The notes: generated by a model not told the origin, from the letters alone. A DNA stretch of 64,000 nucleotides from an uncultured Coxiellaceae bacterium (GCA_964480845.1 CAYZRM010000001.1:6402-70401); one strand, 5' to 3'; counted from the first letter of the stretch, positions 38,004 to 54,088 are shown. Made by a program: numbers and translations.

Positions 38004-40327
38004 AAATTAATTCATACAAAGAGCGGCGTGATTTAGCTAAGAAAAATCGTATTTTATGGCTAATCAATCACACCACTTTGCGTGACTTTGAAATCCCTAT
38101 GCTGATATCATTGGGCTTTGAGGTATATACACCAAAAAATATTCCCGAGTTTATTCATGAATGGAGCGGTTCAAATTGTTATGATTATGATGGCACGCTG
38201 ACTATTCCGTCCGAAGATCTAGCTATTTTAAACCAGCATGATTTTTATGATGGAGAGATGACAGAGACAATAGCGGCAATTATTAACAAATATTTTGCTT
38301 CCGCTTTTTGTGTTTTTTATCCAGCATTGCTAAATGAAGTGGTCAAAAATTTTCACGGGCATGTATTGCTTCGAGCATTTGGTTTGGATAAAAGTACCTC
38401 ATATACAAAAGTCATAGAAGATGCGCTGGGTAGAAATTTCTTTACCATCCTTAAAAAAATGGGTAATCGGTTTTGGTTCTCAGAGTCATATGATAATTTA
38501 AATGAGATTGAACATTATTCATTAAAAAATCGAGCTATTTATCACCCTCTTGGATTGCCAGAAAGTTTTTTTAAGCATCAGAATACATGGGTAGGCGGCG
38601 AGAAAAAAATTCTATTTTTCTGCTCAAGAATCAATGCTTCACCTACTTACTATGGGAAGATTTATAAAGAATTCAAACAAAATTTTGGTGATATTCCTCA
38701 TCTGATTGCTGGAAATCAACCTATAGCAGTAGACGATCCCTGTGTTGCAGGAAAGCAGTCTAGAGATACACTTGATCAGTGGTTAAAAAGTTATGCGGTT
38801 ATGTATTATCATTCAGAAGAGCCACGGCATTTACATTATCATCCACTAGAAGCTATTATTTTTGGTATGCCCCTCATTTTTATGCGTAAAGGAATTTTGG
38901 AGCATATGGGTGGAAAAGATCAGCCAGGGGCTTGTGAAACCATACAGGAAGCTAGAGAAAAAATTCATCGCATTATAGGTGGTGACACCATTTTTATTAA
39001 TGAAATTCTTAAGAGGCAGGTCGAAATGCTAACCGCTTTCTCTTTAGAATTTGCCAAAAAATTATGGCAAGAAAATTTCATTGATAAGGTATTGGTGGAA
39101 GAGATTACCTATACTAATATAAAGCCTATACATAAAATTGGTTTATTTTTGCCAGTGCCTTACAAGGGCGGAAGTCTGGTAGCTGCTAAAAATATAGCTA
39201 AAATGATTGTGCTAGGAAGTGAAGAGTTAGGTGATAATATTCAGCTTGTTTTTTCATGTGTGGAAAATGAATATAATGCAAAAGCTGATTTTAGAGACTT
39301 GACTGAGCTGGGCATTACCGTAAGAGAAACCAAGTGGATTAAACTGATAAAGCAGCAAGTAGAAGCTATACAAAATTTTGCTGGGAAAAAATCAAATTTA
39401 GATTTTCAACAATATTTGTTACCAACTGATGGTATTTGCAATTTCAATGACTGCGATTTTTGGTTGGTTATTTCAGATAGAACATGTTATCCGTTGGCTC
39501 CTATCAAACCCTATGGAATGGTTATCTATGATTATATACAGCGGTATGTGCCAGAAATCACCCATGGATCAGGGTCAGCTTTTGATAATTACATCGCAAG
39601 TGCAAGACAAGCAAATTTTGTATTAACAACCACGCCACAAACAGCTCAGGATGCAATCCAGTTTGCTGGTGTTAAAGCTAGTGCTGTGCATTTAATACCA
39701 ATGGAATTTGAACCAGTAAAAGCGGATGCTTGTCAATTAATAGAAAATGAAGAGCCTTATTTTTTATGGCCAACAAATACTAGCCCACATAAAAATCATT
39801 TAAAAGCCCTTGAAGCTTTACATATTTATTACAATGAATTGAACGGCAGCTATAATGTTCATATAACTGGTTCGGATACGGAAGATTTTTCTAATTCATC
39901 TAGTCCATGCAATTATGTTAAGCAAGTTGTTGAGGCAATCAATAAATCTAGCAAAACAAGGCAGAGCATTCATATTTTTGGTGATTTGCCTAGAAAGGAA
40001 TTCGCTAATAAGCTGAAAAAAGCTAGATTTGTGTGGCATCCAACCAAAATTGATAATGGTACCTATGCAGCTGTTGAGGCTGCTTATTTGGGTGTGCCTA
40101 CGCTTAGTAATGATTATCCCCAAATGCATTATATAAATGAGCGGTTTAGATTAAATTTACAATTTATAAATATGAATGAGCCTTATAAGGTCGCCCTAAA
40201 GCTAAAAGAAATGGAAAAAATGCAAGATAAGTTGCGCCTCCATTTGCCTAAACAGGAATTTTTAGAGCAATTCTCTTATGAAAGCTTAGCTGCTAATTTT
40301 TGGAGTTCAATATGGAAGCTGATGTAA
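37970..40327 (+). CDS. Large soluble protein with two GT-B-like (GT1/GT4-like) modules; putative polymerising glycosyltransferase
   Basis: 785 aa. Two regions resemble GT-B C-terminal halves: ...YYHSEEPRHLHYHPLEAIIFGMPLIF... and ...WHPTKIDNGTYAAVEAAYLGVPTL... The start is uncertain (GTG at 37970 overlaps wzt by 34 nt). The function is inferred from context. Confidence 0.45.
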   Translation: MLSQINEDRSLKINSYKERRDLAKKNRILWLINHTTLRDFEIPMLISLGFEVYTPKNIPEFIHEWSGSNCYDYDGTLTIPSEDLAILNQHDFYDGEMTETIAAIINKYFASAFCVFYPALLNEVVKNFHGHVLLRAFGLDKSTSYTKVIEDALGRNFFTILKKMGNRFWFSESYDNLNEIEHYSLKNRAIYHPLGLPESFFKHQNTWVGGEKKILFFCSRINASPTYYGKIYKEFKQNFGDIPHLIAGNQPIAVDDPCVAGKQSRDTLDQWLKSYAVMYYHSEEPRHLHYHPLEAIIFGMPLIFMRKGILEHMGGKDQPGACETIQEAREKIHRIIGGDTIFINEILKRQVEMLTAFSLEFAKKLWQENFIDKVLVEEITYTNIKPIHKIGLFLPVPYKGGSLVAAKNIAKMIVLGSEELGDNIQLVFSCVENEYNAKADFRDLTELGITVRETKWIKLIKQQVEAIQNFAGKKSNLDFQQYLLPTDGICNFNDCDFWLVISDRTCYPLAPIKPYGMVIYDYIQRYVPEITHGSGSAFDNYIASARQANFVLTTTPQTAQDAIQFAGVKASAVHLIPMEFEPVKADACQLIENEEPYFLWPTNTSPHKNHLKALEALHIYYNELNGSYNVHITGSDTEDFSNSSSPCNYVKQVVEAINKSSKTRQSIHIFGDLPRKEFANKLKKARFVWHPTKIDNGTYAAVEAAYLGVPTLSNDYPQMHYINERFRLNLQFINMNEPYKVALKLKEMEKMQDKLRLHLPKQEFLEQFSYESLAANFWSSIWKLM

Positions 40328-41973
40328 AAACCATAGGCATTTTTTTAGCTTACGCTCCTGAAGATCAAATTAAAAACCAAGGCATCGGTAGGCTGTTGGG
40401 TTTTTTGTTGTTAGGATTGCTTAAAGATCCAACAAATAAAGTTGTTATTGCAATGCCAGGTTGGTATGTCCAGGAAGTAATAAATTTTTTAAAAGATTTA
40501 GCCATAGATCAAGAAAGAATAGAGCTCATTTCAACACCTGGTTCACCTATTTTTGTAAAAATTAAAAAATTTTTACGGAAAAAGAAAAGCTCTACACAAT
40601 CGCCCCAGCAAGCAAGCGCAAGCGGGGCGCGTCGTTCAACTATGAAAAGATATTTTATTAATCCAGTTGTTACAATGGTCAAGCATTGGGTTTCTGCGCG
40701 CTCATTTCTGGTTTTTATGTTAGGTGCTTGTTTGGTAATGACGGCGACTTTATTAGCCATCCTTTTCTTTGTTCCGCTAGCTGTTATAACCAGCTTAGTT
40801 GTATTAATTGCGTTAGGGGTCTATAGTTTTAAAAAAGCAAGGCCTAGGTTGATGCAATTTTTGCTTACTAAAAAGCATATGCTTCCTATGGGGGGAGCTA
40901 AATCAAGGTTATTGAATGTTAAAAATATATTGGAAGCAGCCAGATATCGATGGCGACAGCGTGGGCAATTAATGTATTCTATTGAGTATAAAAAGCTAGC
41001 TAATAAGGTGAATAAAAGAAAGGATATACACGCATGGTTTATTCCTGCCTTATTTTGGCCTGAGATTAAGCACATAAAGGCAAAAAAAATTGTATCTGTA
41101 CCAGATGTAGTTTTTATTGAATTTCCTACGTTATTTATTGAAGCTGGTTATCGAAGAGATTTTCGTAGCTATGCTGAAACAATTTCAGTTGCTGACAATT
41201 TTATTTGTTACAGTGAATATGTAAAAGAAATGCATCTTATCAATAGTTTTGATATTGACCCTTCACGGATTTCAGTGATTCCTCATGGCGTTGTGCGGTC
41301 TGATGAACATTTTAAAGAGTTAGATCCAAGTAACTGGAGCCAAGAAGCCAAGCAAATTCTTTCTCAATTCCAGAAGAGTTATTTAAAAAATAACCAATAT
41401 TTGAGCAGCTTTGATTTTGGGAATGCCAAATATATTTTTTACTCTTCTCAAAGTAGGCCCTATAAAAATATTTTGAGTTTAGTGAAGGTTTATGAAAGAT
41501 TGCTAAGAGAGAATTTTTTAAATATAAAGCTTATTTTGACTGTTAATTTAGACCACGACAAGGCTCTAAAGGCTTATATTAAAGATAAAGATTTAGAAAA
41601 AGATGTACTTTGTCTACAGAATGTTTCAGCAAGAGTGCTAACTGCATTATATCAACGTGCTATATGTGCTGTTAATCCAACTTTATTTGAGGGGGGGTTC
41701 CCTTTCACATTTACAGAGGCTTATTCAGTCGGCACACCTTCTGTAATGAGCAATATTAATGTTGTCAATCGCCACATTAAAGATAATGAATTGAAAAATG
41801 TAATGTTATTTGATCCCTATGATTTGGATGATATGCTTCAAAAGATTGCTAGTGCTGTTAGGGATCCCGATGCTTTATATAAAATGCAGGCACCTTTATA
41901 CGCTGAATTTGAAAAACGTTCATGGGAGCAGGTAGCCGAAGAATATGCTAATGTGATTAAAAATGTAGCTTAA
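40312..41973 (+). CDS. GT4-family glycosyltransferase with an inserted basic linker and two-TM hairpin
   Basis: C-terminal GT4 motif NPTLFEGGFPFTFTEAYSVGTPSV. Insertion KKFLRKKKSSTQSPQQASASGARRS followed by FLVFMLGACLVMTATLLAILFFVPLAVITSLVVLIALGVYSF. I prefer the ATG at 40312 (GGAG 6 nt upstream). Confidence 0.65.
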   Translation: MEADVKTIGIFLAYAPEDQIKNQGIGRLLGFLLLGLLKDPTNKVVIAMPGWYVQEVINFLKDLAIDQERIELISTPGSPIFVKIKKFLRKKKSSTQSPQQASASGARRSTMKRYFINPVVTMVKHWVSARSFLVFMLGACLVMTATLLAILFFVPLAVITSLVVLIALGVYSFKKARPRLMQFLLTKKHMLPMGGAKSRLLNVKNILEAARYRWRQRGQLMYSIEYKKLANKVNKRKDIHAWFIPALFWPEIKHIKAKKIVSVPDVVFIEFPTLFIEAGYRRDFRSYAETISVADNFICYSEYVKEMHLINSFDIDPSRISVIPHGVVRSDEHFKELDPSNWSQEAKQILSQFQKSYLKNNQYLSSFDFGNAKYIFYSSQSRPYKNILSLVKVYERLLRENFLNIKLILTVNLDHDKALKAYIKDKDLEKDVLCLQNVSARVLTALYQRAICAVNPTLFEGGFPFTFTEAYSVGTPSVMSNINVVNRHIKDNELKNVMLFDPYDLDDMLQKIASAVRDPDALYKMQAPLYAEFEKRSWEQVAEEYANVIKNVA

Positions 41974-41976
41974 TAT

Positions 41977-42570
41977 ATGAATTTAATTATTTATGGTTGT
42001 GGTGGGCATGCAAGAAGCATTGCAGATGTAGCAATAGCTAATGGCTATTCTGAAATTACTTTTTTAGATGACTATGCAAAGCTAGAGGAAAAGATATTTA
42101 ATTTTCCTATACAAAAGGAAATAATTAATAGTCAATTATCAAGTATTGTTGGGCTGGGAGATAATAATAAGCGTAAACATCTGTTTGAACAGCTAGATCA
42201 AAAATTTATCATATCTTTAGTATCAAAAGATGCGTATCTTGGGCAAGAAGCTTGCATTGATAAAGGCACATTTATCGGTCATCAGGCTTATATAGGGCCA
42301 AATGCACAGGTTGGTAAAAATACGATTATTAATACCCGGTCAATCGTTGAACATGATTGCGTAATAGGCGATCATTCACATGTTTCTGTTGGTTCTATTA
42401 TGGCAGGAAAGGCTAAGCTTGGGGATAAGGTATTTTTAGGGGCTGGCGCAATAGTAGTTGATGGTATATCAGTATGTTCAGATGTTGTCATAGGTGCTGG
42501 CGCTGTTGTGACAAAAGATATAGTTGAGTCAGGAATTTACGTTGGTATACCAGCTTGTAAAATTAAATAG
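41977..42570 (+). CDS. NeuD/PglD/PerB-family sugar N-acetyltransferase (left-handed beta-helix)
   Basis: 197 aa. N-terminal Rossmann-like MNLIIYGCGGHARSIADVA, then hexapeptide repeats (IG..A.IGPNA.VG.NT.IN..S.V.HD..IGD.SH.S.G). The context with gmd/per suggests GDP-perosamine N-acetylation. Confidence 0.7.
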   Translation: MNLIIYGCGGHARSIADVAIANGYSEITFLDDYAKLEEKIFNFPIQKEIINSQLSSIVGLGDNNKRKHLFEQLDQKFIISLVSKDAYLGQEACIDKGTFIGHQAYIGPNAQVGKNTIINTRSIVEHDCVIGDHSHVSVGSIMAGKAKLGDKVFLGAGAIVVDGISVCSDVVIGAGAVVTKDIVESGIYVGIPACKIK

Positions 42571-42579
42571 ATCATCAGA

Positions 42580-42996
42580 ATGGCTAATATAATAAAGTTG
42601 ATAAAATCGATTTGTGCTTCTCAACCATTGCGTTTTCTTTTAGTCGGTGGTTTAAATACGCTATTTGGATACGCTGTATTTTCTATTTTCATTAGTTATC
42701 ATTTGCCTTATCAAATAGCAATGTTTTTAGCAACTTGCCTAGGAATATTGTTTAACTTTAAATCGGTGGGATATTTGGTTTTTAATAATAAGAAGAATCA
42801 CTTAATTTTTAAATTTATGCTGGTTTATTTTTTATTATACCTTGTTAATGTTAGCCTAATTTCTTTTCTTTCATTTATTTCACCCAACCTATATTTAAAT
42901 GGAATGATTGCCATTTTAATAACCGCCGTACTTAATTATTTTTTAAGTAAGCGCTTTATTTTTAAAGAAAATGAGTGTAGTTTGGCCCATCATTAA
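42580..42996 (+). CDS. GtrA-family membrane protein (polyprenol-phosphate-sugar flippase-like)
   Basis: 138 aa with 4 TM segments. N-terminal [21 protein letters not shown] and C-terminal [11 protein letters not shown] are typical of GtrA-like proteins. Confidence 0.75.
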
Positions 42997-43045
42997 TGCA
43001 GACGCATGTATGTGTATTAGGATAAAAAGGAAAGGAGAATATGCT

Positions 43046-43813
43046 ATGAAGGCAGTTATCTTAGCTGGGGGCTTAGGTACCCGAATCAGTGAAGAAACAA
43101 TTTTAAAACCAAAACCAATGATTGAAATTGGCGGGCGACCTATTCTTTGGCACATAATGAAGCATTATTCTGCTTATGGAATAAATGATTTTATTATTTG
43201 TTTGGGTTACAAAGGGTATGTTATTAAAGAATACTTTATTAACTATTTTCATCACATGTCAGATGTCACCATAGATATTCGAAATAATTCAACTGAAATT
43301 CATCAAAATAATTCTGAGCCTTGGCGTGTAACCTTGGTTGACACTGGCGAGCATTCTATGACGGGTGGTCGATTGAAACGGGTTGCACATCATTTGGGTG
43401 ATGAAGATTTTTGCTTTACGTATGGCGATGGCGTGTCAAATGTTAATATTAATGATCTGATTGATTTCCATAAAAAACAAGGTCGTTTAGCCACATTGAC
43501 AGCTATTAAGCCACCTGCACGTTTTGGTGCTATTAATATTGAGCAAGAAAAAATCACTAGTTTCCAAGAAAAGCCTTACGGCGGAAATGGTTGGGCGAAT
43601 GGTGGCTTTTTTGTTCTTTCCCCTAAGGTAATTGATTATATACAAGACGATCATACTATATGGGAGCGTGATCCGTTGGAGCGTTTAACGGAAGACCATC
43701 AAGTTTCTGCTTATCAGCATGAAGATTTCTGGTATGCAATGGATACGCTGAGAGATAAAAATTATCTTGAGCAATTATGGGAAAGTAAAGAAGCACCTTG
43801 GAAGGTTTGGTAA
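43046..43813 (+). CDS. rfbF: Glucose-1-phosphate cytidylyltransferase
   Basis: Collinear with the remembered Salmonella RfbF: [63 protein letters not shown]...MTGGRLKRV...MDTLRDK.YLE.LW...APWK.W. I prefer the ATG at 43046 (AAAGGAGA Shine-Dalgarno). Confidence 0.92.
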
Positions 43814-44874
43814 TGACCTCAGATTTTTGGAAAAATAAGAAAGTTTTCATAACAGGGCATACAGGCTTTAAGGGCAGCTGGCTATCTTTATGGTTGCAGG
43901 AATTAGGCGCAGAGGTGATAGGCTTTTCTTTAGAGCCATCAACCGCACCTAATCTTTTTACAGTTGCTGCTGTAGAAAAAAACATGAAAAGCTATATCGG
44001 CGATATCCGAGATTTTGATGCATTAAAGCGGGCTATTTCGGATACCAGACCAGACATCATCTTTCACATGGCTGCACAATCATTAGTTCGTTATTCATAC
44101 GATTATCCTATTGATACTTATGCTGTTAATGTGATGGGAACCGTTAATTTATTTGAAGCAGTGAGACAAGTAGGTGGTTGCAAAGCCATTGTCAATATTA
44201 CTTCAGATAAATGTTATGAAAATAAAGAATGGCATTGGGGTTATCGCGAGCATGATGTATTAGGTGGACATGATCCTTACAGTAATAGTAAGGCTTGTGC
44301 AGAACTTGTGACTGCTTCTTTCCGTGATTCATTCTTCAAAGCGCAGGGTTGCGGATTGGCCTCTGTGAGAGCTGGGAATGTAATAGGGGGCGGTGACTGG
44401 GCGTTAGATCGTTTAATTCCAGATTTAATGCGTAGTTTAATAAATGAGAAAGTATTCAGTGTTCGCTATCCACATGCTCTGCGTCCTTGGCAGCATGTAT
44501 TAGAGCCCTTGCATGGTTATTTATTAGTCGCAGAGCAATTATATCAGGCGCCTAGTGTTTATGCCGAAAGCTGGAATTTTGGCCCAGAAGAGAATGATGT
44601 TAAACCGGTTGAATGGATTATCAAGAAAGTTCAACAATTCTGGAAAGCCAATCTTACTTCTCAATATGATGCCAATGCAGTACAACGTCATGAAGCAACT
44701 TACCTTAAGTTAGATAGTTCTAAAGCAAAGAGTAAGCTGGGATGGAAGCCTAACTGGGATTTGGAAAAAGCGTTAGCTCAAACCGTTGATTGGTATCAAG
44801 CATATGCTAGAAAATCAGATATGCATCAGAAAACTTGCGCACAAATTAAAAAATATACTAGTTTACAAGGATAA
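43813..44874 (+). CDS. rfbG: CDP-glucose 4,6-dehydratase
   Basis: FWKNKKVFITGHTGFKGSWLSLWLQELGAEV is the RfbG N-terminus, and YSNSK is the catalytic YxxxK. The ATG at 43813 overlaps the rfbF TAA (TAATG). Confidence 0.9.
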   Translation: MTSDFWKNKKVFITGHTGFKGSWLSLWLQELGAEVIGFSLEPSTAPNLFTVAAVEKNMKSYIGDIRDFDALKRAISDTRPDIIFHMAAQSLVRYSYDYPIDTYAVNVMGTVNLFEAVRQVGGCKAIVNITSDKCYENKEWHWGYREHDVLGGHDPYSNSKACAELVTASFRDSFFKAQGCGLASVRAGNVIGGGDWALDRLIPDLMRSLINEKVFSVRYPHALRPWQHVLEPLHGYLLVAEQLYQAPSVYAESWNFGPEENDVKPVEWIIKKVQQFWKANLTSQYDANAVQRHEATYLKLDSSKAKSKLGWKPNWDLEKALAQTVDWYQAYARKSDMHQKTCAQIKKYTSLQG

Positions 44875-44880
44875 TATGAC

Positions 44881-46101
44881 ATGAGTTCAAATCAACCAAT
44901 AGCTGTCCCTTATGGAAAAACTGTGCATGGTGAAGAAGAAATTGCAGCAGTCGTTAATGTATTGCGTACCTCTACTCAAATGGGTAAGCATGTGCGTGAA
45001 ATGGAAGAGAAGGTAGCTGCTTTATTTAATAAAAAGCATGGCATTATGGTGAATTCTGGATCCTCTGCTAACTACTTAGCAATTGAAATTTTGCAATTAC
45101 CAGCCGGCTCTGAAGTGATTACCCCCGTGCTAACTTTTTCAACCACCGTGGCACCTTTAATTAAAAATAATTTAGTGCCTGTATTTATTGATGTAGAACC
45201 TGATACTTTCAATATTGATGCTGATCAAGTTGAAGCAATGATCACTGATAAAACAAAAGCAATGATGATTCCTAATTTATTAGGTAATTTACCTAACTGG
45301 AAAAAATTAAGAGAAATCGCTGATCGTTATAATTTGTTAGTGATAGAAGATTCTGCTGATACCTTGGGTGCCACCATTGAAAATGAATCTGCAGGTCGCT
45401 TTAGTGATATTAGCACCACCAGTTTCTACGGTTCACATGTGATTAACTGTGGCGGTAATGGCGGTATGTTATGCGTTAACAACGATGAATTAGCGAATCG
45501 TGCTAAATTGTTAAGAAGCTGGGGCCGTAGTTCTTCTTTATTTGTTGAATCTGAAGCGATTGAAAATCGATTCAATGTGCAAGTGGATGGCATGGAATAC
45601 GATGCTAAATTTTTATTTGAAGCATTAGGCTATAATCTTGAGCCATCTGAGATGGGCGCAGCATTTGGTTTAGTCCAGTTATCTAAATTAGACAATAATA
45701 TTGCTTTAAGAGAAAAAGCGTTTAAGCAACACCAAGAATTTTTTAACCAATACCAAGATTGGTTCATATTTTCTAAGCAATTACCAGCATCGAGAACTGG
45801 CTGGTTAGCGTTCCCCCTCATTGTTAAAAATACTGCGCCTTTCTCTAGAAGAGAATTGCAAATTTTCTTAGAGAAAAAGCTAATTCAAACCAGAACCATT
45901 TTTACTGGCAATATTTTACGTCAGCCAGGTTTCAAGCAGGTAGAAAGAAGAGAATCTGCTAACGGATATCCAAATGCAGATCAAGTTATGAAAGGCGGTA
46001 TGTTGATTGGTTGTCATCACGGGTTAACACCTGAAATGATGCAACACATACATCAATCATTCTTAGAGTTTGCTGCTCAATATAGTTCAGCAACAGTTTA
46101 A
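44881..46101 (+). CDS. DegT-fold NDP-4-keto-6-deoxyhexose 3-dehydratase (RfbH/E1/ColD-like; His replaces the PLP Lys)
   Basis: 406 aa. It aligns to the aminotransferase motif SFFGNKT..GEGG as SFYGSHVINCGGNGG, so the Schiff-base Lys is replaced by His, as in the E1/ColD dehydratases. There are only 3 Cys in the whole protein, so it cannot carry a 4-Cys [2Fe-2S] site. Confidence 0.7.
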   Translation: MSSNQPIAVPYGKTVHGEEEIAAVVNVLRTSTQMGKHVREMEEKVAALFNKKHGIMVNSGSSANYLAIEILQLPAGSEVITPVLTFSTTVAPLIKNNLVPVFIDVEPDTFNIDADQVEAMITDKTKAMMIPNLLGNLPNWKKLREIADRYNLLVIEDSADTLGATIENESAGRFSDISTTSFYGSHVINCGGNGGMLCVNNDELANRAKLLRSWGRSSSLFVESEAIENRFNVQVDGMEYDAKFLFEALGYNLEPSEMGAAFGLVQLSKLDNNIALREKAFKQHQEFFNQYQDWFIFSKQLPASRTGWLAFPLIVKNTAPFSRRELQIFLEKKLIQTRTIFTGNILRQPGFKQVERRESANGYPNADQVMKGGMLIGCHHGLTPEMMQHIHQSFLEFAAQYSSATV

Positions 46102-46112
46102 GGGGTGTATTA

Positions 46113-47912
46113 ATGCATAATTCTATTAGCAGTTATAAACATTCAATTAATAATTATTTTTCTTTTTTAAAAGAAACCACGCGTTTAGATGATTTACATA
46201 CTAAATCAATTTTATTACCTAACGACGCAGGTTATCTGTTGCCTGTTTGTGAGTTACATGCAACAGATAAGAATTTGATTAGCAAGTTTGCTAATTGGAG
46301 AAAGGAAAATGGCCAATTTTTCCCATCTCAGTTTCCTGTAACAGATGAAGGCACCACCACCTGGTTACGCAAGAGTGTCTTAGATGTTAAGGATAGAATT
46401 TTATTTTTAGTATTAGATAACCATGGCGAAGTGGTTGGTCATTTAGGATTTGCAAATGGTTTAAATGATCAAGGCGAATTAGAAGTTGATAATGTTGTGC
46501 GTGGCGTGAAACAAAGCCATGCCGGTATTATGCATCTTGCCATGCAAAAATTGATTGATTGGGCTGAAGAATTTATTGCCCCGGAAAAAATATTTTTACG
46601 CGTATTTAGCGATAATCAACATGCCATTAATTTTTATAAAAAACTTAGCTTCAAGGAAGATGGCCTTATTCCTTTAGCTAAGCATGTGGAAGGCGAAGCC
46701 GTATTTTATCGCGCCACTACCAGTGCTGATGAAAAAGTAGCGCAGCATTTTTTACGCATGGTATATGCACCAGCCAGATTAGAAAAAGCTGAGACCTTGA
46801 TTTCAACAGCTGGCCCTTCTATTTCAGCTCGTGAAGTTAGCTACGCAAATGATGCAGCTAGAAATGGCTGGAATGGGAAGTGGAATACTTATATTAAGAA
46901 ATTTGAAGAAACTTTCTGCGATTATATTGGTGTAAAGCATGCATTAACGACCTCTAGTTGCACGGGTGCACTTCACATTGCGCTTGCCGCTCTTGGTATT
47001 GGTCCTGGTGATGAAGTGATAGTGCCTGATATTACCTGGGTAGCAACAGCCAATGCAGTCGTTTACGTGGGTGCAACCCCAGTATTTGCTGATGTCGATT
47101 TAGATAGCTGGTGTATGACGCCTGAATCCTTCGAATCCTTAATTACTGAAAAAACAAAAGCAGTGATTCCTGTGCATTTATACGGCCATCCTGCTCCTAT
47201 TGAAGAAATTGTTAAAATTGCACGTAAGCACGGCTTGTATATCATCGAAGACGCAGCGCCTTCCGTTGGTGCTGAGTGGACGGGCCAGAAAGTAGGTACC
47301 TTTGGTGATTTTGCTGCATTTAGTTTCCAAGGTGCAAAATTAGCAGTCAGTGGTGAAGGCGGTATGCTAGTTACCAATAATGATGAGTTATTTGCGAAAG
47401 CATATGCCATTTGGGATCAGGGCCGCGAACCTAATACTTTCTGGATTAAGCAAAATGGCTTAAAATATAAGATGTCTAATGTCCAAGCAGCTATTGGTTT
47501 AGGGCAGGTAGAAAGAATTGTTGAGCTAATTGAAGCAAAACGTCGAATTTTCTCTTGGTATGCTGAGCATCTACAAGATACGCCGCATATTAAATTAAAT
47601 TATGAAGTGCCAAATGCTTATAGTATTTACTGGATGACTAGTATTATGGTAGATGATAAAAGTGGCATAGGACGTGATCGTTTGCGTGACGCTTTAAAAG
47701 CAAGAAATATAGATACACGTCCTGTATTTCCTGCCATTAGCCAGTATCCTCATTGGCCAAGAGCACAACAGGCACAAGTCAATTCATCTTACATTGGTAA
47801 GCAAGCAATTAACATGCCAAGTGGCGTCTGTCTAAAGCAAAGAGAAGTAGAATATATTTGTCGTTCATTAAAAGAAATTTTAGTGACACAAGATATTTTA
47901 ATTCCTGCTTAA
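46113..47912 (+). CDS. Fusion protein: N-terminal GNAT N-acetyltransferase + C-terminal DegT/ArnB-type sugar aminotransferase
   Basis: 599 aa. The first ~210 aa are GNAT-like (…VVGHLGF…GVKQSHAGIMHLAMQKLIDWAEE…INFYKKLSFKE). The remainder is DegT-like, with FSFQGAKLAVSGEGGMLV (Lys retained) and DTRPVFPAIS. Confidence 0.7.
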   Translation: MHNSISSYKHSINNYFSFLKETTRLDDLHTKSILLPNDAGYLLPVCELHATDKNLISKFANWRKENGQFFPSQFPVTDEGTTTWLRKSVLDVKDRILFLVLDNHGEVVGHLGFANGLNDQGELEVDNVVRGVKQSHAGIMHLAMQKLIDWAEEFIAPEKIFLRVFSDNQHAINFYKKLSFKEDGLIPLAKHVEGEAVFYRATTSADEKVAQHFLRMVYAPARLEKAETLISTAGPSISAREVSYANDAARNGWNGKWNTYIKKFEETFCDYIGVKHALTTSSCTGALHIALAALGIGPGDEVIVPDITWVATANAVVYVGATPVFADVDLDSWCMTPESFESLITEKTKAVIPVHLYGHPAPIEEIVKIARKHGLYIIEDAAPSVGAEWTGQKVGTFGDFAAFSFQGAKLAVSGEGGMLVTNNDELFAKAYAIWDQGREPNTFWIKQNGLKYKMSNVQAAIGLGQVERIVELIEAKRRIFSWYAEHLQDTPHIKLNYEVPNAYSIYWMTSIMVDDKSGIGRDRLRDALKARNIDTRPVFPAISQYPHWPRAQQAQVNSSYIGKQAINMPSGVCLKQREVEYICRSLKEILVTQDILIPA

Positions 47913-47926
47913 CTTCACTCTGTACA

Positions 47927-47954
47927 AAAGGCAAGATGCTCATCTTGTCTTTTG
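47927..47954 (+). terminator. Weak hairpin + T-tract between the GNAT-aminotransferase and GT2 genes (possible sub-operon boundary or attenuator)
   Basis: aaaaggcaaga-tgctca-tcttgtctttt, an AT-rich stem with one G-U pair. Confidence 0.3.
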
Positions 47955-47970
47955 CCTTAATGAGAATAGC

Positions 47971-48945
47971 ATGAAAAAACATATCAGTATCGTAACACCT
48001 TGTTACAATGAAGAGAAAAATGTTGAAGAGATTTATCATCAAGTTAAGATGGTGATGAATGGGTTGCCTCAATATACATATGAACATATCTTCATTGATA
48101 ACGCCTCTATAGATAAAACAGTTAATATTTTACGTCATATGGCAGCTCATGATAAAAACGTAAAAATTATTTGTAATGCTAGAAATTTTGGTCCTGTACG
48201 CTCTCCGTATTATGGTTTATTGCAAGCTAAAGGTGATGCTGTCGTTTGTATTTCAGCGGATTTGCAAGAGCCACCAACCTTAATTAAAGATTTTTTAGAA
48301 AAGTGGGAAGCCGGTTTTAAGGTTGTTGCTGGTACAAAAGCACAGAGCCGTGAGTCTAAGCTAATTTTCTTTTTACGTAAGCTATATTATCGCACCGTTT
48401 CTAAAATTTCAGATGTAAAATTAATTAGAAACTTTCATGGCTTTGGTTTATACGATAAAGCTGTTATTCAAGCGTTTAGAAAAATAGATGATCCTTATCC
48501 ATACCTACGTGGCTTGGTATCAGAAATTGGTTACAAAACCACAGAAGTACCGTATACACAAGAAGAACGTATGCATGGTAAATCGAAAGCGAACATCTTT
48601 GTCTTGTATGACTGGGTTATGTTAGGTATTACCAGTCATAGTAAATTTCCTATCCGACTAACCACGATGGTGGGGTTTAGCCTAGCCTTTTTAAGTTTTT
48701 TAGCTTCTATTGCATTTGTTGTATTAAAGCTAATGTTCTGGTCTAGTTTTAAATTGGGTGTGGCACCGTTATTAATTGGCTTATTTTTCTTTTCATCAAT
48801 ACAATTATTCTTTATTGGCTTATTAGGCGAATACATTATATCGATACATACACGTGTGATGAAAAGACCATTAGTGATAGAAGACGAAAGGGTTAATTTT
48901 GATGAAGCGAATGAAGATAAGCAATTATATTGCCGTGTTTCTTAA
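47971..48945 (+). CDS. GT2 polyprenol-phosphate glycosyltransferase (ArnC/GtrB/DPM1-like)
   Basis: Collinear with the remembered ArnC: ISIVTPCYNEE, IFIDNAS.D.T, SADLQEPP. Two C-terminal TM helices end in GLLGEYIISIHTRV (compare ArnC GLLGEYIGRIYTDV). Confidence 0.85.
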   Translation: MKKHISIVTPCYNEEKNVEEIYHQVKMVMNGLPQYTYEHIFIDNASIDKTVNILRHMAAHDKNVKIICNARNFGPVRSPYYGLLQAKGDAVVCISADLQEPPTLIKDFLEKWEAGFKVVAGTKAQSRESKLIFFLRKLYYRTVSKISDVKLIRNFHGFGLYDKAVIQAFRKIDDPYPYLRGLVSEIGYKTTEVPYTQEERMHGKSKANIFVLYDWVMLGITSHSKFPIRLTTMVGFSLAFLSFLASIAFVVLKLMFWSSFKLGVAPLLIGLFFFSSIQLFFIGLLGEYIISIHTRVMKRPLVIEDERVNFDEANEDKQLYCRVS

Positions 48946-50632
48946 GGTTCAGGAAACTGATCATGTATTTGAGGTAGCAGGCGGTATGATTACCCATATG
49001 CTAGACTCATTGCATAATGTCGGTAGGACGAAAATTATTAGTGTTCATCATGAACAATCTTCTTCATTTGCTGTTGATGCTTACGGGCGATGCACTGGTC
49101 GCCCTAGTATTGCATTTGCCACTAGCGGTCCGGGTGCAACCAATTTGTTAACTGGTATAGGGAGCTGTTATTTTGATTCATCACCAGCTCTTTTTATTAC
49201 TGGCCAGGTCAACACCCATGAGCAAAAAAGAGATAAGCCAATTAGGCAATTAGGTTTCCAAGAAACAGACATTGTTTCTATGGCAAAACCAATTACTAAA
49301 AAAGTTTATCAGGTTGAAAGAGCTGAAGATTTTGAAGCTATTTTAAAAGAAGCTTACACCTTAACAATGAGTGGTAGGCCGGGCCCTGTTTTAATTGATA
49401 TTCCAATGAATATACAATCGGCTCAAATTGATGTTAGCGATATTGAATATATTCCCATACCGCAGGTAGATCAATTTCAAGAAATTAGTAAATTAATATT
49501 GTTAGAGCAGGCAATTAAGCAAGCTAAGAAACCTTTAATACTGGCAGGACAAGGCATCTCTTGTGCGCGTGCTAGAGCTGAATTTATTACCTTTATTGAA
49601 AAGCTAAATATTCCTGTCGTTTCTTCTTTGCTAGGCCTAGATTTATTGCCGTTTGATCACGCTTTACGTGTAGGTATGATAGGTAGTTATGGTAATCGTT
49701 GGGCTAATTTAGCGATTGGAGAAGCTGACTTATTAATTGTTCTCGGTAGCCGATTAGATATTCGACAAACCGGTGCGCATATTGATGGTTTTAGGCAAAA
49801 TAAGACAATTTTCCACATTGATTGCGATGCAGGTGAAATTAATAACCGCATGAAAGATTGCACTCCTATTGTGGCGGATGCCAACGATTTCTTGCTGAAA
49901 GCAAATCATTACTATCAAGCGCAAACCTTCCCTTCATTTAATGATTGGTTAGCTGACATTAACGCTTTAAAGGCGAAATGGCCTGATACGAATGAACTGC
50001 AAGGCTTTAAAGGTATTAATCCTAATGAGTTTATGCATGCTTTGTCAGCTGCAGCTAAAGATAGTGCAGCTTATCTAGTTGATGTGGGTAATCATCAGAT
50101 GTGGTCGGCTCAATCAATTGACCTTCATAAAAATCAATTATTTATTACAACGGGCGGTATGGGCGCTATGGGGTTTGCCTTGCCTGCCGCAATAGGTGCT
50201 TGTTTTGCTCTAAAGCAACAACCTGTCGTTGTTATTGCGGGTGATGGTGCATTTCAAATGAATATCCAAGAGCTGCAAACGATAGTTAGAAATAAGCTAC
50301 CTATTAAAATAGTCATTATCAACAATCAGGCATTAGGCATGATTAGGCAGTTTCAAGATAGCTATTTTGATAAACGCTACCAGTCAACCTATTGGGGTTA
50401 TAGCGCGCCTGATTTCTCTGCTGTTGCAAATGCTTACGGTATACCAGCCACTACGATAGATGCGACAGATGCTATACAAGAAGCGGTTGCCTGGCTGACA
50501 AGCCAACCTTCTGCTGCATTGTTGCAGGTAATGGTAGATACTCACATGAATGCTTATCCTAAAATAGCATTTGGTAAACCCATTACTGAAATGGAGCCAT
50601 TTGCTAAACCGGTAGAAATGGAAAGTACCTAA
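48902..50632 (+). CDS. Thiamine-diphosphate enzyme of the acetolactate-synthase large-subunit family (YerE-like candidate)
   Basis: About 575 aa. N-terminal Pyr domain (HEQSSSFAVDAYGR..GRP.IAFATSGPGATNLLTGI) and the ThDP motif GDGAFQMNIQELQTIVRNKLPIKIVIINNQALG (GDG...NN). No ilvN/ilvC neighbour. The start overlaps the 3' end of the GT2 gene. Confidence 0.8.
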   Translation: MKRMKISNYIAVFLKVQETDHVFEVAGGMITHMLDSLHNVGRTKIISVHHEQSSSFAVDAYGRCTGRPSIAFATSGPGATNLLTGIGSCYFDSSPALFITGQVNTHEQKRDKPIRQLGFQETDIVSMAKPITKKVYQVERAEDFEAILKEAYTLTMSGRPGPVLIDIPMNIQSAQIDVSDIEYIPIPQVDQFQEISKLILLEQAIKQAKKPLILAGQGISCARARAEFITFIEKLNIPVVSSLLGLDLLPFDHALRVGMIGSYGNRWANLAIGEADLLIVLGSRLDIRQTGAHIDGFRQNKTIFHIDCDAGEINNRMKDCTPIVADANDFLLKANHYYQAQTFPSFNDWLADINALKAKWPDTNELQGFKGINPNEFMHALSAAAKDSAAYLVDVGNHQMWSAQSIDLHKNQLFITTGGMGAMGFALPAAIGACFALKQQPVVVIAGDGAFQMNIQELQTIVRNKLPIKIVIINNQALGMIRQFQDSYFDKRYQSTYWGYSAPDFSAVANAYGIPATTIDATDAIQEAVAWLTSQPSAALLQVMVDTHMNAYPKIAFGKPITEMEPFAKPVEMEST

Positions 50633-50645
50633 TTAATATCAGCGG

Positions 50646-52340
50646 ATGATTAAATCATCCGCTACTCATAGATGTATTATAAAAGTGTATAATTTAACTA
50701 AAAGTTCTCAGTCTATTTTAATTATTCTTGGCTTAAGCTGCGTGATAGGTCTGTCTTGGTGGCTTAGCTACTATGGTTTTCCCTTTAACGATGAAAGCTT
50801 TCCACTAGCCACGTCTTTGCGTTTTGTTAATGGGCAAATTCCATTTAAAGATGATTTATCGCCTTACATAGGCATAGGTTTATTTTTAGCACCATTTATT
50901 AAATTGAGTTTGCTGCTGCATCAAGGAACCAATGAGTTAGTATTATTTATGCGGCAGCTATTTATTGCTTTTACTATGTTAGGCGCTCTTAGAATATATT
51001 ATGTCACTAAACAATATTGGGACACTGCTTTAGCTTTTTTCACAGCGTGTATGCTTATTGTTTATCATCCATTTGGCATTAATAATTTTCATTACGATAC
51101 AATGGCGGAAGTATTGTGGCCTTTAATATTGTTTAGTCTAGTTAATTTCGTAAGAAAGCCAGATAGCAGTAAAATAGCCTATATCATATTTTCGCTTTTA
51201 AGCTGTTTACTATGTCTTATTTATCCTACCTTTGCGCCATTTTTATTGGCGCTATATGTTGCTTGCCATTGTTGGATAAAGGATAAATTTATCTTTTGGT
51301 TTACGAATGTCGTGGTGGGTTCTTTAGTTGCCGCATTATTTTTAGGATTACTGTTTGGGTATTATAAAATTACAGGCGTCGATATTTTGCATGCTAAAGA
51401 GTTTAGTAGCCAATTGTTCGCGCTATCAACTACTGAGCATGGTCTAATAGGCAAAATTATAACTGTTTTTAGTCACCTGGTGCATGCGTATTGGAAATAT
51501 ATTATTTGTAGTTTTCTATTAGTGGGGTCAGCCGCTTTATTCAAAAAAAACTGGTTCACATTATTGGTCTTGGGCGTTTTATTTCTTCTTCCCCTTACTG
51601 GTATGTCATTTGCTCAAATTTATTTTCCTGATATATTTTACTACTTTAATTGTATTGGATTGTTAGGCCCTATCATTTATTGGTTGTTGTATCAGCCAGC
51701 AGGGGAAGACAAAAAATTATTTAACATTTTATTTCTAGCATCATTAGCAGCTGGTTTTTTAATTAGCGTAACAAGCTACAACCTAGATTTAAATTTTAAT
51801 ATCGGCTTTTTCCCTGCCACTTTGCTGGGCTTTTTTATTGCCTACCTAACTATTAAGCAGTGCTATCCTAAGCGATTTTATCAATACTCAGTGCTTATTT
51901 ATGGCTTGCTATTAACGGCTTTTTTTCAATGGAATGCTATCTACGCAGTGAGTGATAGAGGCATAGATATTTATAAAAATGCAGAAGTCTATGATACAAA
52001 AGGCGCATTGTATGGTCTTTATTTTCATCCATATTGGATGAAAATAGCAGAAGATCTGCAGCAAGATTTAGCAAAGTTAGATACTAACGAAAAAACATTT
52101 GTTTATTTTGGCGCATTTTCTGTTGGGTATTTATTGGTTAATCATTTAAAGCCAGGTGAATATCTATTGTTTTCTCCGTATAACTTAAACCATTTCGGTG
52201 CGGCGGTACGTTTTCCTAATATTACGATAGATTTATCGCGTTCTTTAGGCTTGCCTGATGACCATATTAAGGCTTATCTAAGCGGTGGAGCTTATAGAAA
52301 AATAATAACCAAACAGTACTACGATATTTACCAAGGATGA
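50646..52340 (+). CDS. Polytopic membrane protein, putative GT-C-fold glycosyltransferase (ArnT/PMT-like architecture)
   Basis: 564 aa with >10 predicted TM segments. An acidic motif sits in the first extracytoplasmic loop just after TM1 (YYGFPFNDESFPLA). A soluble C-terminal region of ~110 aa follows. The start is uncertain because the ATG at 50646 lies inside a hairpin. Confidence 0.5.
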   Translation: MIKSSATHRCIIKVYNLTKSSQSILIILGLSCVIGLSWWLSYYGFPFNDESFPLATSLRFVNGQIPFKDDLSPYIGIGLFLAPFIKLSLLLHQGTNELVLFMRQLFIAFTMLGALRIYYVTKQYWDTALAFFTACMLIVYHPFGINNFHYDTMAEVLWPLILFSLVNFVRKPDSSKIAYIIFSLLSCLLCLIYPTFAPFLLALYVACHCWIKDKFIFWFTNVVVGSLVAALFLGLLFGYYKITGVDILHAKEFSSQLFALSTTEHGLIGKIITVFSHLVHAYWKYIICSFLLVGSAALFKKNWFTLLVLGVLFLLPLTGMSFAQIYFPDIFYYFNCIGLLGPIIYWLLYQPAGEDKKLFNILFLASLAAGFLISVTSYNLDLNFNIGFFPATLLGFFIAYLTIKQCYPKRFYQYSVLIYGLLLTAFFQWNAIYAVSDRGIDIYKNAEVYDTKGALYGLYFHPYWMKIAEDLQQDLAKLDTNEKTFVYFGAFSVGYLLVNHLKPGEYLLFSPYNLNHFGAAVRFPNITIDLSRSLGLPDDHIKAYLSGGAYRKIITKQYYDIYQG

Positions 52341-54088
52341 AACAGGAGTTTAAGGTGGAAAAAACAAGTTATTTAAAAAGTATCATGGAATATACATTAG
52401 CATTTGTATTATCAATTGTTATTTATTTGTTGGTGTCGGGTACTTATCATCATCATACTTTAACAGTTTTGTATGATTACAATGGCGATGGGCTTTTTGC
52501 TGCTTCTTGGGTCAAATCCATCATTGAGCATGGCTGGTATTTATCTAATGAAAATTTAGGTGCGCCTAACGGCTACAATATGATCGACTTTCCCATGGCG
52601 GATAACTTTCATTTCCTTATTCTAAAAGGCTTGACCCTCTTTTCTAGTAATTATGCAGTAGTCGTAAATTTATTTTTTTTATTAACATTTCCCTCTATTA
52701 CGCTGATGACGTTATTTGTTTTAAAGCGATTTAATATTATTTACCCGTTTGCTTTAGTAGCTAGCTTATTATTCGCTTTTGTGCCTTATCATTTTGAACA
52801 TGGTCAATGGCACATCTTTTTATCCTCTTACTATGTTATTCCATTAGTCATATGGATCGCTTTATCTGTTACCGAAAGAGGTGCTTTAAATTTTATTTCT
52901 AATAGTGCTTATATTAGGTGGGGTGTTTTAACATTACTTTGTTTGCTCATCGGTTCATCAGGTATTTATTATGCATTTTTTGGTGTTTTCTATTTATTAA
53001 TGGCAGGCTTAATTGTTAGCGTGGTCAGAAGAGAATGGTTGCCTATTATACGGACGATGATACTGACAGGCTTGATTGTTGGAGCTGGGATATTAAATGT
53101 ATCAACTTATTTATTATACGGCCATGCCACAGAATCTGTTCAGCGCCATCCTGTAGAATCTGAAGTATACAGCATGAAGATTACGCCTTTGCTCTTACCC
53201 GCGGAGTTTCATCGCGTTGAGCCTTTAGCCAACTTCAAGCATTTTTATACCTCTACCACCAAGGGTAATGCAGGGATGACTTGCTCTTTAGGATTTATTG
53301 GTAGCCTTGGGTTCTTGTTTTTATTAGCAGCTATTATTTTTAGAAACGATGAAATAAAAAATGTAAAACCAGGCATGTCAGATTTTAATTTGATTGCAAA
53401 ATTAAATTTGTGTGGTGTGCTATTTGCAACAATGGGAGGATTTGGTGCTTTATTTGCTTATACCATTTCTCCTATGATTAGATGCTACGATAGAATGAGT
53501 ATTTTTCTAGCATTTTTCGCTTTTTATGCTTTCTTCTTTTTATTGCAAAGAAAATGGGTAGCGCATTACGGCACGACTAAGAATAAGTTACTCTGGCTAT
53601 TGTCATTGTTATTATTAGTACTTGGTATGTTAGATATCACTGTCAAAGATCATCTAACTAATTATATTAAGGTTAGTTCTACTCGTGTCATTAAGGCAAA
53701 AGTAGATAATGACAGGCACTTTGTACGTGAAGTAGAAAAGGTTATCCCTGCAGGTGGTATGGTTTTCCAACTACCTTATGTTATTTTTCCTGAAGCAAAT
53801 TATGAACACTTCCGGCCTTATCTCCACTCTAAGCATACGAAATGGAGTTTTGGTACCATGGCTGGTAGTAAAGTAGATGCATGGCAAAAACAAGTAGCTC
53901 TTTTACCACCTGCAGAAATGGTGGCAGAGTTAAAACGTGCAGGTTTTATTGGTATTTATATAAATAGAGATTTATATACTGATAAAGGGGTTGAGGTTGA
54001 GCTCGAAAAACAATTAACGTATTTAACTAAGAGTCAGCCTATTGTAAGCGAGAATGCTAGTTTAAGTTTTTTCTTAATCCCTAATTAA
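52337..54088 (+). CDS. Polytopic membrane protein with a ~150-aa C-terminal periplasmic domain, second putative GT-C-type transferase
   Basis: 583 aa. After TM1: YDYNGDGLF...LGAPNGYNMIDFPMADNFH, an acidic loop. About 11 TM segments. 4-nt overlap (ATGA) with the upstream gene. Confidence 0.45.
   Translation: MKQEFKVEKTSYLKSIMEYTLAFVLSIVIYLLVSGTYHHHTLTVLYDYNGDGLFAASWVKSIIEHGWYLSNENLGAPNGYNMIDFPMADNFHFLILKGLTLFSSNYAVVVNLFFLLTFPSITLMTLFVLKRFNIIYPFALVASLLFAFVPYHFEHGQWHIFLSSYYVIPLVIWIALSVTERGALNFISNSAYIRWGVLTLLCLLIGSSGIYYAFFGVFYLLMAGLIVSVVRREWLPIIRTMILTGLIVGAGILNVSTYLLYGHATESVQRHPVESEVYSMKITPLLLPAEFHRVEPLANFKHFYTSTTKGNAGMTCSLGFIGSLGFLFLLAAIIFRNDEIKNVKPGMSDFNLIAKLNLCGVLFATMGGFGALFAYTISPMIRCYDRMSIFLAFFAFYAFFFLLQRKWVAHYGTTKNKLLWLLSLLLLVLGMLDITVKDHLTNYIKVSSTRVIKAKVDNDRHFVREVEKVIPAGGMVFQLPYVIFPEANYEHFRPYLHSKHTKWSFGTMAGSKVDAWQKQVALLPPAEMVAELKRAGFIGIYINRDLYTDKGVEVELEKQLTYLTKSQPIVSENASLSFFLIPN

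Follow-up and report, generated by a model that had tools for sequence, protein, structure and literature searches.

A probable YerE-type gene cluster in an uncultured Coxiellaceae bacterium carries a GNAT-aminotransferase fusion in the YerF position and may direct synthesis of an aminated branched-chain sugar

The closest described relatives of the system reported here are the yersiniose gene clusters of Yersinia, in which a three-domain thiamine diphosphate (ThDP)-dependent enzyme, YerE, is encoded 3' of genes for a cytidine diphosphate (CDP)-glucose synthase, a 4,6-dehydratase, and a 3-dehydratase, next to the gene for its partner YerF, an NAD(P)H-dependent enzyme that reduces the acetyl branch. 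More than 200 YerE-like members have already been reported in silico, and acetyl branches installed by ThDP enzymes can be reduced, methylated, oxidised "or transaminated (kibdelomycin)" (PMC12247030). We analyzed a 64,000-nucleotide (nt) stretch of DNA, hereafter the window, from an uncultured Coxiellaceae bacterium (GCA_964480845.1, CAYZRM010000001.1:6402-70401), in which an open reading frame (ORF) for an acetolactate synthase (ALS)-like ThDP enzyme lies among sugar and glycosyltransferase genes. An earlier note on this DNA (the original prediction) had read the ORF as a YerE-type enzyme acting in a branched-chain sugar pathway towards yersiniose A. The branching part of that reading is supported by several independent comparisons described below; the end product is probably not yersiniose A, since the reductase expected for it is replaced by an aminotransferase fusion.

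We compared the window with the yer locus of Yersinia aleksiciae, which serves here as a stand-in for that of Y. pseudotuberculosis. The Y. aleksiciae locus has the order ddhD(E3)-ddhA-ddhB-ddhC(E1)-yerE-yerF-GtrA-GT2-membrane protein, where GT2 denotes a family 2 glycosyltransferase. Window proteins match seven of these products, with amino acid identities of 61% (ddhA), 55% (ddhB), 36% (ddhC), 40% (yerE; E = 4e-143), 43% (GtrA), 57% (GT2), and 33% (membrane protein), and no homologue of ddhD or yerF was found in the window. YerF of Y. aleksiciae is a short-chain dehydrogenase/reductase (SDR) of 310 amino acids (PF01370) whose gene adjoins yerE. Besides the 40% identical ThDP enzyme, the two systems share a characteristic loop insertion in that enzyme and the matching GtrA, GT2, and large membrane proteins. 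They differ in that the window has a fusion protein instead of YerF, has no DdhD/E3, encodes an E1-like enzyme without the Fe-S cysteines, and carries an extra membrane protein, mem564. Two of these differences from the classical yersiniose module, the lack of YerF and the lack of an Fe-S E1/E3 pair, were tested directly. In the Y. aleksiciae sequence (our locus L088; 4785-15264), ddhDABC-yerE-yerF are followed by GtrA, GT2, and a 747-amino-acid membrane protein with a C-terminal DUF7024 domain. Yersiniose in this species may be delivered by a Gtr-type periplasmic route and not by a cytoplasmic O-unit glycosyltransferase.

Affinity of the ThDP enzyme to YerE

The central gene and its diagnostic segments are as follows.

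48902-50632 (+): ThDP-dependent carboligase gene, very probably YerE-type, the central ORF; three TPP domains, with YerE affinity by several comparisons
49202-49264 (+): YerE-type loop GQVNTHEQKRDKPIRQLGFQE, residues 101-121, with a 6-residue insertion relative to acetohydroxyacid synthase (AHAS)
50240-50326 (+): ThDP-binding motif GDG-X24-NN, residues 447-475, read from the translation

The ORF is intact and encodes 576 amino acids between an ATG at 48902 and a stop codon ending at 50632. An in-frame TTG (48899) lies just 5' of the ATG, and a Shine-Dalgarno-like GAAAGGG is found approximately 10 nt upstream. As the original prediction had described, the protein has the full architecture of an ALS large subunit together with the GDG...NN motif: Pfam places TPP_enzyme_N at residues 4-127, M at 203-331, and C at 394-543 (E values from 4e-30 to 2e-49), and the cofactor-activating Glu is held in HHEQ at residues 49-52. 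The enzyme probably also binds flavin adenine dinucleotide. The predicted overlap of its start with the GT2 gene (47971-48945) is likewise present; the ThDP start codon lies inside the 3' end of that gene, and the overlap measures 44 nt.

Several comparisons separate this protein from biosynthetic AHAS. The best NCBIfam model is TIGR00118, the biosynthetic ALS large subunit, at 486.5 bits, which is below its curated equivalog cut-off of 538.35 bits. Two controls, Escherichia coli IlvB (670.7 bits) and IlvI (946.7 bits), both pass this cut-off; the homologue of Legionella maceachernii fails it at 500.3 bits, and Yersinia YerE and the protein of Protein Data Bank (PDB) entry 5AHK score lower still than the window and L. 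maceachernii proteins. In a PDB sequence search 5AHK was by far the best match (440 bits over residues 3-566, against 315 bits for E. coli AHAS I and 309 bits for plant AHAS). We take 5AHK to be PpYerE, the ketone-accepting YerE homologue of Pseudomonas protegens. The 5AHK sequence shares 83% identity with a P. protegens protein and 68% with proteins from five Yersinia species, and these values, together with the mention of a PpYerE structure in a review (PMC12247030), fit that identification.

Profile hidden Markov models (HMMs) built for each clade gave the same result in both directions. The window-clade HMM scored classical YerE at 571-585 bits and AHAS (IlvB/IlvI) at 417-420 bits, and the classical-YerE HMM scored the window protein at 560 bits and AHAS (IlvB/IlvI) at 326-341 bits, a margin of 150-220 bits in favour of YerE. 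When one genome per species was scanned, 80 related loci were recovered. In a neighbour-joining tree, a clade of 80 sequences, the window protein among them, has 5AHK as its sister, and IlvB and IlvI fall outside both; the window clade is sister to the Yersinia/Pseudomonas YerE clade and not inside it. All 80 related proteins, like 5AHK, carry the 6-residue insertion in the GQV...FQE loop, which E. coli IlvB/IlvI lack (window, GQVNTHEQKRDKPIRQLGFQE; AHAS, GQVPASMIGTDAFQE), and the same 80 proteins and 5AHK have Phe at the position of IlvI's Trp. The loop pattern GQVNTHE.K...IRQ.GFQE and the motif GM(V/I)R.FQ of PpYerE both recur in the window enzyme, although the two share only about 40% identity; PpYerE has been characterised with non-physiological ketones.

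Gene context points in the same direction. Usable flanks, defined as at least 4 kb 5' and at least 2.5 kb 3' of the ThDP gene, were available for 60 of the 80 loci, and rfbF, rfbG and/or an E1-type 3-dehydratase gene was found near the ThDP gene in 58 of these 60. The closest relatives of the window protein (60-72% identity) come from Legionella and Tatlockia genomes and metagenome-assembled genomes (MAGs), and the exact window sequence was found only in bioreactor, wastewater, sludge, and sediment metagenomes. ClpB of the organism groups, at 90% identity or above, with NCBI MAG proteins labelled "Gammaproteobacteria bacterium", and the source is therefore an uncultured gammaproteobacterium that probably belongs to the Legionellales. 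Clade members in Legionella micdadei, L. nautarum, and Legionella MAGs (P0082, P0083, P0102) are publicly annotated as "acetolactate synthase", a name that is misleading for the clade in view of both the NCBIfam cut-off and the gene context.

Some observations pull the other way. The window clade is about 40% identical to classical YerE and still about 34% identical to AHAS, and it scores above classical YerE on the ALS model. The neighbour-joining tree includes two AHAS outgroups only and carries no bootstrap support, and Y. aleksiciae YerE and 5AHK are stand-ins for the biochemically characterised YerE of Y. pseudotuberculosis. Even so, the evidence from cut-off, structure match, HMMs, loop insertion, gene linkage, and the Yersinia locus agrees with the core of the original prediction, and we regard it as highly probable that the ORF encodes a YerE-type sugar-branching enzyme and so adds a member to the YerE-like subclass. 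The original prediction had named robust grouping with true ALS enzymes as speaking against it; no such grouping was observed, and tree, HMMs, and loop all place the protein with YerE.

An indirect chemical anchor for this family assignment comes from within the same clade. The original prediction had offered as a lead that yersiniose A occurs in the lipopolysaccharide (LPS) of some non-pneumophila Legionella, and we traced the corresponding report as a citation in a later article: yersiniose A was reported in L. maceachernii, one of two species (Sonesson & Jantzen 1992, J Microbiol Methods 15:241, as cited in PMC7867332). L. maceachernii ATCC 35300 carries the same ThDP gene (62% identity), together with the E1-like gene (80%), GT2, GtrA, and an SDR of about 363 amino acids, so that the cited report would bear, indirectly, on the assignment of the window enzyme. 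Across L. maceachernii, L. nautarum, L. drozanskii, and Legionella sp. D16C41, the shared components are the ThDP enzyme (62%), the E1-like enzyme without Fe-S ligands (80%), GT2 (62-63%), GtrA, and a protein of the type of mem583, another window membrane protein; in Legionella sp. D16C41, a GtrII-family protein is found in the mem583 position. These loci differ from the window in having an extended SDR of about 365 amino acids, a YerF-like candidate, where the window has the fusion.

Two alternatives to a YerE-type enzyme that transfers a two-carbon unit bear on these results. A genuine AHAS large subunit for valine, leucine, and isoleucine synthesis, placed by chance inside a glycan operon, would explain the full ALS architecture, the ALS models as top NCBIfam matches (486 bits), and the retention of the Arg of the AHAS RxDxR motif (RLDIRQTG). 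It would, however, leave unexplained why the protein falls below an equivalog cut-off that real AHAS pass by 130-400 bits, why its start overlaps a GT2 gene within a sugar-gene operon, why 58 of 60 loci from many phyla tie the gene to CDP-sugar genes, and why both clade HMMs favour YerE. In a Pfam scan of every ORF of at least 100 amino acids in the 64-kb window, we found no AHAS small subunit (ilvN/ilvH), ilvC, or ilvD, which agrees with the absence of an ilvN or ilvC partner in the original prediction, and L. pneumophila, a cultured relative, is a Leu, Val, and Ile auxotroph (PMC6178616). We consider an AHAS role very improbable. A YerE-type enzyme using a longer or functionalised 2-oxo acid donor, as ErwE or MMAR_2332 do, would give a branch of more than two carbons, and the donors of YerE-like enzymes do range from C2 to C8, with a preference that is not yet readable from sequence (PMC12247030). 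Yet the erwiniose and caryophyllose clusters hold aldolase and dehydrogenase genes for their special donor (PMC9306805), no such donor-synthesis genes occur in the window cluster, and the 62% identical L. maceachernii enzyme comes from a species reported with the C2-branched yersiniose A. A longer donor therefore appears improbable, if less so than an AHAS, and we continue with a YerE-type enzyme that installs an acetyl branch.

A GNAT-aminotransferase fusion in the YerF position

The gene that distinguishes the window from the reductase-type loci is the following.

46113-47912 (+): fusion of an N-terminal GNAT N-acetyltransferase and a C-terminal DegT-family aminotransferase, 599 amino acids, identified by Pfam

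Pfam assigns Acetyltransf_1 to residues 70-180 and DegT_DnrJ_EryC1 to residues 236-586 (E = 1e-109), and the lysine for pyridoxal 5'-phosphate (PLP) is K409. The gene sits between the E1-like gene and GT2, in the slot of the YerF-type SDR. The original prediction had noted no obvious YerF-type reductase adjacent to the ThDP gene, and our homology searches of the window with three YerF-type SDR queries and with Y. aleksiciae YerF returned none. Because the slot is taken by the fusion, the absence of YerF is not an annotation gap.

The replacement recurs among related loci. Of the 60 loci with usable flanks, 52 have an extended SDR near the ThDP gene, usually directly 5', and five have a GNAT/aminotransferase; none has both, and three have neither. 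Fusion-type replacement was seen in loci L005, L009 (Legionella sp. 515359), L042, L043, L064, and probably L059, and on the ThDP tree these loci are spread over three lineages or more. We found no alignment column by which ThDP enzymes from loci with the aminotransferase could be told from those in loci with the reductase, which fits the same branching reaction in both.

The fused architecture itself occurs widely; we counted at least 120 clusters (60% identity or more), from Cyanobacteria, Acidobacteria, Anaerolineae, and other groups. When seven contexts were sampled regardless of ThDP content, the fusion gene in all seven followed an E1-type dehydratase gene and directly adjoined a gene for a ThDP enzyme that forms C-C bonds. 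This partner is YerE-like in L096 and L097 and a split transketolase in L094, L095, L100, L101, and L102; L097 has a full transketolase besides its YerE-like enzyme. The polysaccharide clusters L094 (Microcoleus), L095 (Terracidiphilus), and L100-L102, from Cyanobacteria, Acidobacteria, and other groups, have the fusion and split transketolase 3' of rfbF, rfbG, and E1, and the sugar-branching split transketolases predicted in a 2025 review are all Streptomycete. A scan of metagenome contigs with the fusion gave five loci, mostly short; in one of them, the gene for a 71% identical homologue precedes the same GT2, whereas homologues of 50% identity were uninformative.

A precedent for aminating such a branch exists in kibdelomycin (amycolose), in which a ThDP-installed acetyl branch on a deoxysugar is transaminated and not reduced (PMC12247030). 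The systems differ in that the kibdelomycin ThDP enzyme is of the alpha-KADH2 type, the branch is at C-3 of a deoxythymidine diphosphate (dTDP)-type sugar, the enzymes lack a GNAT fusion, and the product is an actinomycete antibiotic and not a cell-surface glycan. In the window, the C-4 ketone would be used by the YerE-type enzyme and the branch ketone would be the only carbonyl left, so that the parsimonious reading is for the DegT domain to aminate the branch and the GNAT domain to acetylate the resulting amine. With the fusion replacing YerF, the end product is probably an aminated, N-acetylated analogue and not yersiniose A.

This assignment has to be set against several findings that count against it. 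The closest solved relative of the aminotransferase domain is GDP (guanosine diphosphate)-perosamine synthase, a ring C-4 aminotransferase (284 bits), and the regiochemistry of DegT enzymes is unreadable from sequence, so that action on the ring C-4 ketone is possible. The GNAT half resembles generic amine acetyltransferases only. In addition, the five GNAT/aminotransferase loci are phylogenetically non-independent and represent about three to four lineages. On balance we give even weight to branch amination and N-acetylation by the fusion and to its not occurring.

The most specific competing explanation is that two products arise from one CDP-4-keto intermediate: a 4-C-acetyl sugar from the ThDP enzyme, which would stay unreduced or be converted to yersiniose by a reductase encoded elsewhere, and a ring 4-acetamido sugar made by the fusion. 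The resemblance to a C-4 aminotransferase would suit this explanation, as would the heterogeneity of YerF-type SDRs, which comprise at least three poorly related types and make a remote reductase hard to exclude. A candidate for such a reductase is the only SDR in the window, which lies outside the cluster at 11042-12013 (-), but its similarity is of a generic SDR kind (E ~1e-3), and we rejected it as a hidden YerF for want of specific similarity to any YerF type. Two further points argue against two products: the module contains only one GT2 carrier transferase, and SDR (52 loci) and fusion (5 loci) exclude each other beside the ThDP and GT2 genes. The coupling of fusion and ThDP enzyme in seven of seven contexts would also be unexplained if a 4-keto sugar were all that the fusion needed. 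We consider two separate products unlikely, and take amination and acetylation of the branch as the working assignment for the fusion.

CDP-sugar supply and an E1-like dehydratase without Fe-S ligands

Upstream of the fusion lie three genes for the predicted sugar precursor.

43046-43813 (+): rfbF/ddhA, glucose-1-phosphate cytidylyltransferase, which makes CDP-glucose (TIGR02623, 457.6 bits, cut-off 300)
43813-44874 (+): rfbG/ddhB, CDP-glucose 4,6-dehydratase (TIGR02622, 513.7 bits, cut-off 278)
44881-46101 (+): E1-like, pyridoxamine 5'-phosphate (PMP)-dependent 3-dehydratase without an Fe-S cluster, 406 amino acids; closest solved relative Yersinia E1 (3bcx)

The longest rfbF ORF starts at 42971; both the model and the gene calls on Logan contigs back Met-26 (43046) as the start. 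In a review of nucleotide-sugar dehydratases, the only types listed are E1 (CDP, Fe-S), ColD (GDP, no Fe-S), and SpnQ (dTDP, Fe-S); E1 and SpnQ require an Fe-S cluster and a reductase, while ColD has no cluster, hydrolyses its intermediate, and regenerates PMP from glutamate (PMC8987622). The window dehydratase scores 230 bits to Yersinia E1 (3bcx) and 172 bits to ColD, and its H186 aligns with the catalytic H220 of E1, which is thus kept. The [2Fe-2S] ligands C193, C251, C253, and C261 of E1 correspond to A, S, L, and I in the window protein. Of the dehydratases encoded near the 80 ThDP genes, 47 keep every ligand and are canonical, and 19, all of the Legionellales type, have lost cluster ligands (all four in 17 and three in two). 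The lineage with lost ligands is found in the window and in L005-L020, L026, L029, and L047, and takes in the L. maceachernii protein.

Given the loss of the [2Fe-2S] cysteines, we infer that the window dehydratase probably works by a ColD-like mechanism on a CDP substrate. It shares with ColD a His in place of the PLP lysine, the lack of an Fe-S motif, and the lack of a dedicated reductase (PMC8987622), and differs from it in being nearer to E1 in sequence and in belonging to a CDP-glucose rather than a GDP-mannose pathway. The Fe-S-less enzyme probably deoxygenates C-3, since yersiniose A is a 3,6-dideoxy sugar and the L. maceachernii locus holds only this type of dehydratase. We found no E3 (DdhD) homologue within the 64-kb window. 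What speaks against giving this weight is that E3 is linked in only one of the 80 loci, including those with canonical E1, so that the absence of a linked E3 says little by itself; we dropped it as stand-alone evidence for an Fe-S-free mechanism. The original prediction, which had the upstream rfbF, rfbG, and dehydratase genes supply CDP-4-keto-3,6-dideoxyglucose, is borne out as to gene identities by the curated cut-offs and the 3bcx match; the substrate is probably made by a ColD-like route and not by the classical E1/E3 one.

Operon structure, glycan delivery, and proposed pathway

The genes at 35372-54088 are co-directional with gaps of at most 58 nt and several overlaps, and on these grounds they look like one operon. 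A promoter and terminator scan of the cluster performed no better than on shuffled sequence, and an Rfam scan of the window gave no matches. Four of its products are candidates for delivering the finished sugar.

42580-42996 (+): GtrA-family small membrane protein, putative flippase for a polyprenyl-phosphate-linked sugar (PF04138 GtrA_DPMS_TM, E = 4e-16)
47971-48945 (+): GT2 polyprenyl-phosphate glycosyltransferase, GtrB/ArnC type (PF00535)
50646-52340 (+): mem564, polytopic membrane protein with about 11 transmembrane (TM) segments by hydropathy; no Pfam match even at E = 1
52337-54088 (+): mem583, polytopic, about 12 TM segments and a soluble tail of about 150 amino acids; candidate periplasmic glycosyltransferase in the GtrC role, by homology to a Y. 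aleksiciae protein

The GT2 protein shares 33% identity with E. coli GtrB (YfdH) and 27% with ArnC, and it has the same C-terminal TM hairpin (residues ~234-285). Over 557 amino acids (E = 5e-77), mem583 matches the last product of the Y. aleksiciae yerE-yerF-GtrA-GT2 locus, a membrane protein, and it is also 30-33% identical to proteins encoded beside the ThDP gene in L. maceachernii, L. drozanskii, and L. nautarum. Homologues of mem564 (38-41% identity) were detected in three related loci only: L005 and L009, which have the GNAT-aminotransferase, and L006, which has an SDR instead. Both membrane proteins have an ArnT-like topology.

Compared with the GtrABC and ArnC-ArnT systems, the window has the same set of a GtrA-family protein, a GT2 with a C-terminal TM hairpin, and a polytopic protein with a soluble C-terminal tail. 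It differs in that the donor would be a CDP-sugar and not a uridine diphosphate sugar, and in that its membrane proteins have no detectable similarity to ArnT or GtrII. Neither profile comparison nor modelling assigned these proteins a fold: the mem583-family profile gave probabilities below 1% against ArnT, GtrII, and mem564 in hhalign, and a single-sequence AlphaFold2 model of the membrane protein had a mean predicted confidence (pLDDT) of 41.7, unusable for fold assignment. The role of mem583 and mem564 as transferases is inferred from their position, with mem564 possibly a second periplasmic transferase, and Gtr-type delivery of the sugar as a whole seems to us probable.

Directly 5' of the cluster, at 32259-42570, lies an ABC-transporter-dependent O-polysaccharide module of the N-acylperosamine type, in the same orientation except for gmd (-). 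Its genes are manC, gmd, a perosamine-synthase-like aminotransferase, wzm, wzt, GT1-type transferases of 785 and 557 amino acids, and a PglD/NeuD-type acetyltransferase. By position, the N-acylperosamine-type O-polysaccharide is the candidate, and likely, acceptor of the sugar.

From these components we propose the following pathway. RfbF and RfbG, both of which pass their curated cut-offs, would convert glucose-1-phosphate to CDP-4-keto-6-deoxy-D-glucose, from which the E1-like enzyme would remove the 3-OH in the manner of ColD, by hydrolysis and with PMP regenerated from glutamate, to give CDP-4-keto-3,6-dideoxy-D-glucose. The ThDP enzyme would then decarboxylate pyruvate or another small 2-oxo acid and add the acyl-anion equivalent at C-4, yielding a tertiary alcohol with an acetyl branch, a step predicted from family membership and gene context. 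In place of reduction by YerF, the DegT domain would transaminate the branch ketone and the GNAT domain would N-acetylate the amine; the predicted product, CDP-3,6-dideoxy-4-C-(1-acetamidoethyl)hexose, is proposed from gene-replacement and gene-coupling statistics only. Finally, by homology, the GtrB/ArnC-like GT2 would transfer the sugar to undecaprenyl phosphate and GtrA would flip it, and by position, mem583, perhaps with mem564, would attach it to the glycan in the periplasm. We rate the pathway as a whole, from YerE-type branching through amination and N-acetylation of the branch to Gtr-type delivery, as moderately likely.

Elsewhere in the window we observed several unrelated genes. A 1762-amino-acid protein at 13965-19253 (-) combines a Ser/Thr protein kinase, an AAA_16/STAND NTPase, a GAF domain, and an adenylate/guanylate cyclase. 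At 10260-11030 (+), in a chromosomal, non-phage context, a metallo-beta-lactamase-fold protein scores 93.8 bits on PF23023, the Anti-Pycsar Apyc1 family (cut-off 50). At 26280-28322 (-) there is a 680-amino-acid fusion of VTT (DedA-like), PAP2 phosphatase, and LssY_C domains, the last named after a Legionella secretion-system protein, in keeping with an origin in the Legionellales, and a 610-amino-acid ORF at 59513-61345 (+), 3' of a cbpA/MerR_2 pair, has no Pfam match at all.

In conclusion, we tentatively propose, with slightly less than even confidence, that this module makes an undescribed 3,6-dideoxy-4-C-(1-acetamidoethyl)hexose by way of an Fe-S-free, E3-independent dehydratase, a YerE-type enzyme, and a bifunctional fusion, and that the fusion marks a much wider, unrecognised set of pathways to branched amino sugars, spread over Cyanobacteria, Acidobacteria, Chloroflexi, and Legionellales, in which the ThDP enzyme is either YerE-like or a split transketolase. 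In the searchable literature we found neither a 1-aminoethyl or 1-acetamidoethyl branched LPS sugar nor such a pathway variant; a point against novelty is that the survey of Krug et al. 2024 (Angew Chem e202403535), which lay outside the search, may list YerE clusters that contain aminotransferases.

If the proposal is correct, it would have consequences for enzymology as well as for glycan biology. A CDP-hexose 3-dehydratase that needs neither an Fe-S cluster nor E3 would make CDP-3,6-dideoxyhexoses easier to prepare enzymatically. YerE-like enzymes are of interest as biocatalysts that yield chiral tertiary alcohols, and a natively coupled transaminase and acetyltransferase could extend the YerE toolbox to alpha-tertiary-hydroxy amines. 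The chemistry of branch amination has so far been known only from an actinomycete antibiotic whose pathway uses another class of ThDP enzyme; its combination with N-acetylation here would establish a new tailoring branch of YerE-type sugars in cell-surface glycans. It would also predict a new monosaccharide, for LPS chemists to seek in Legionella-related bacteria.

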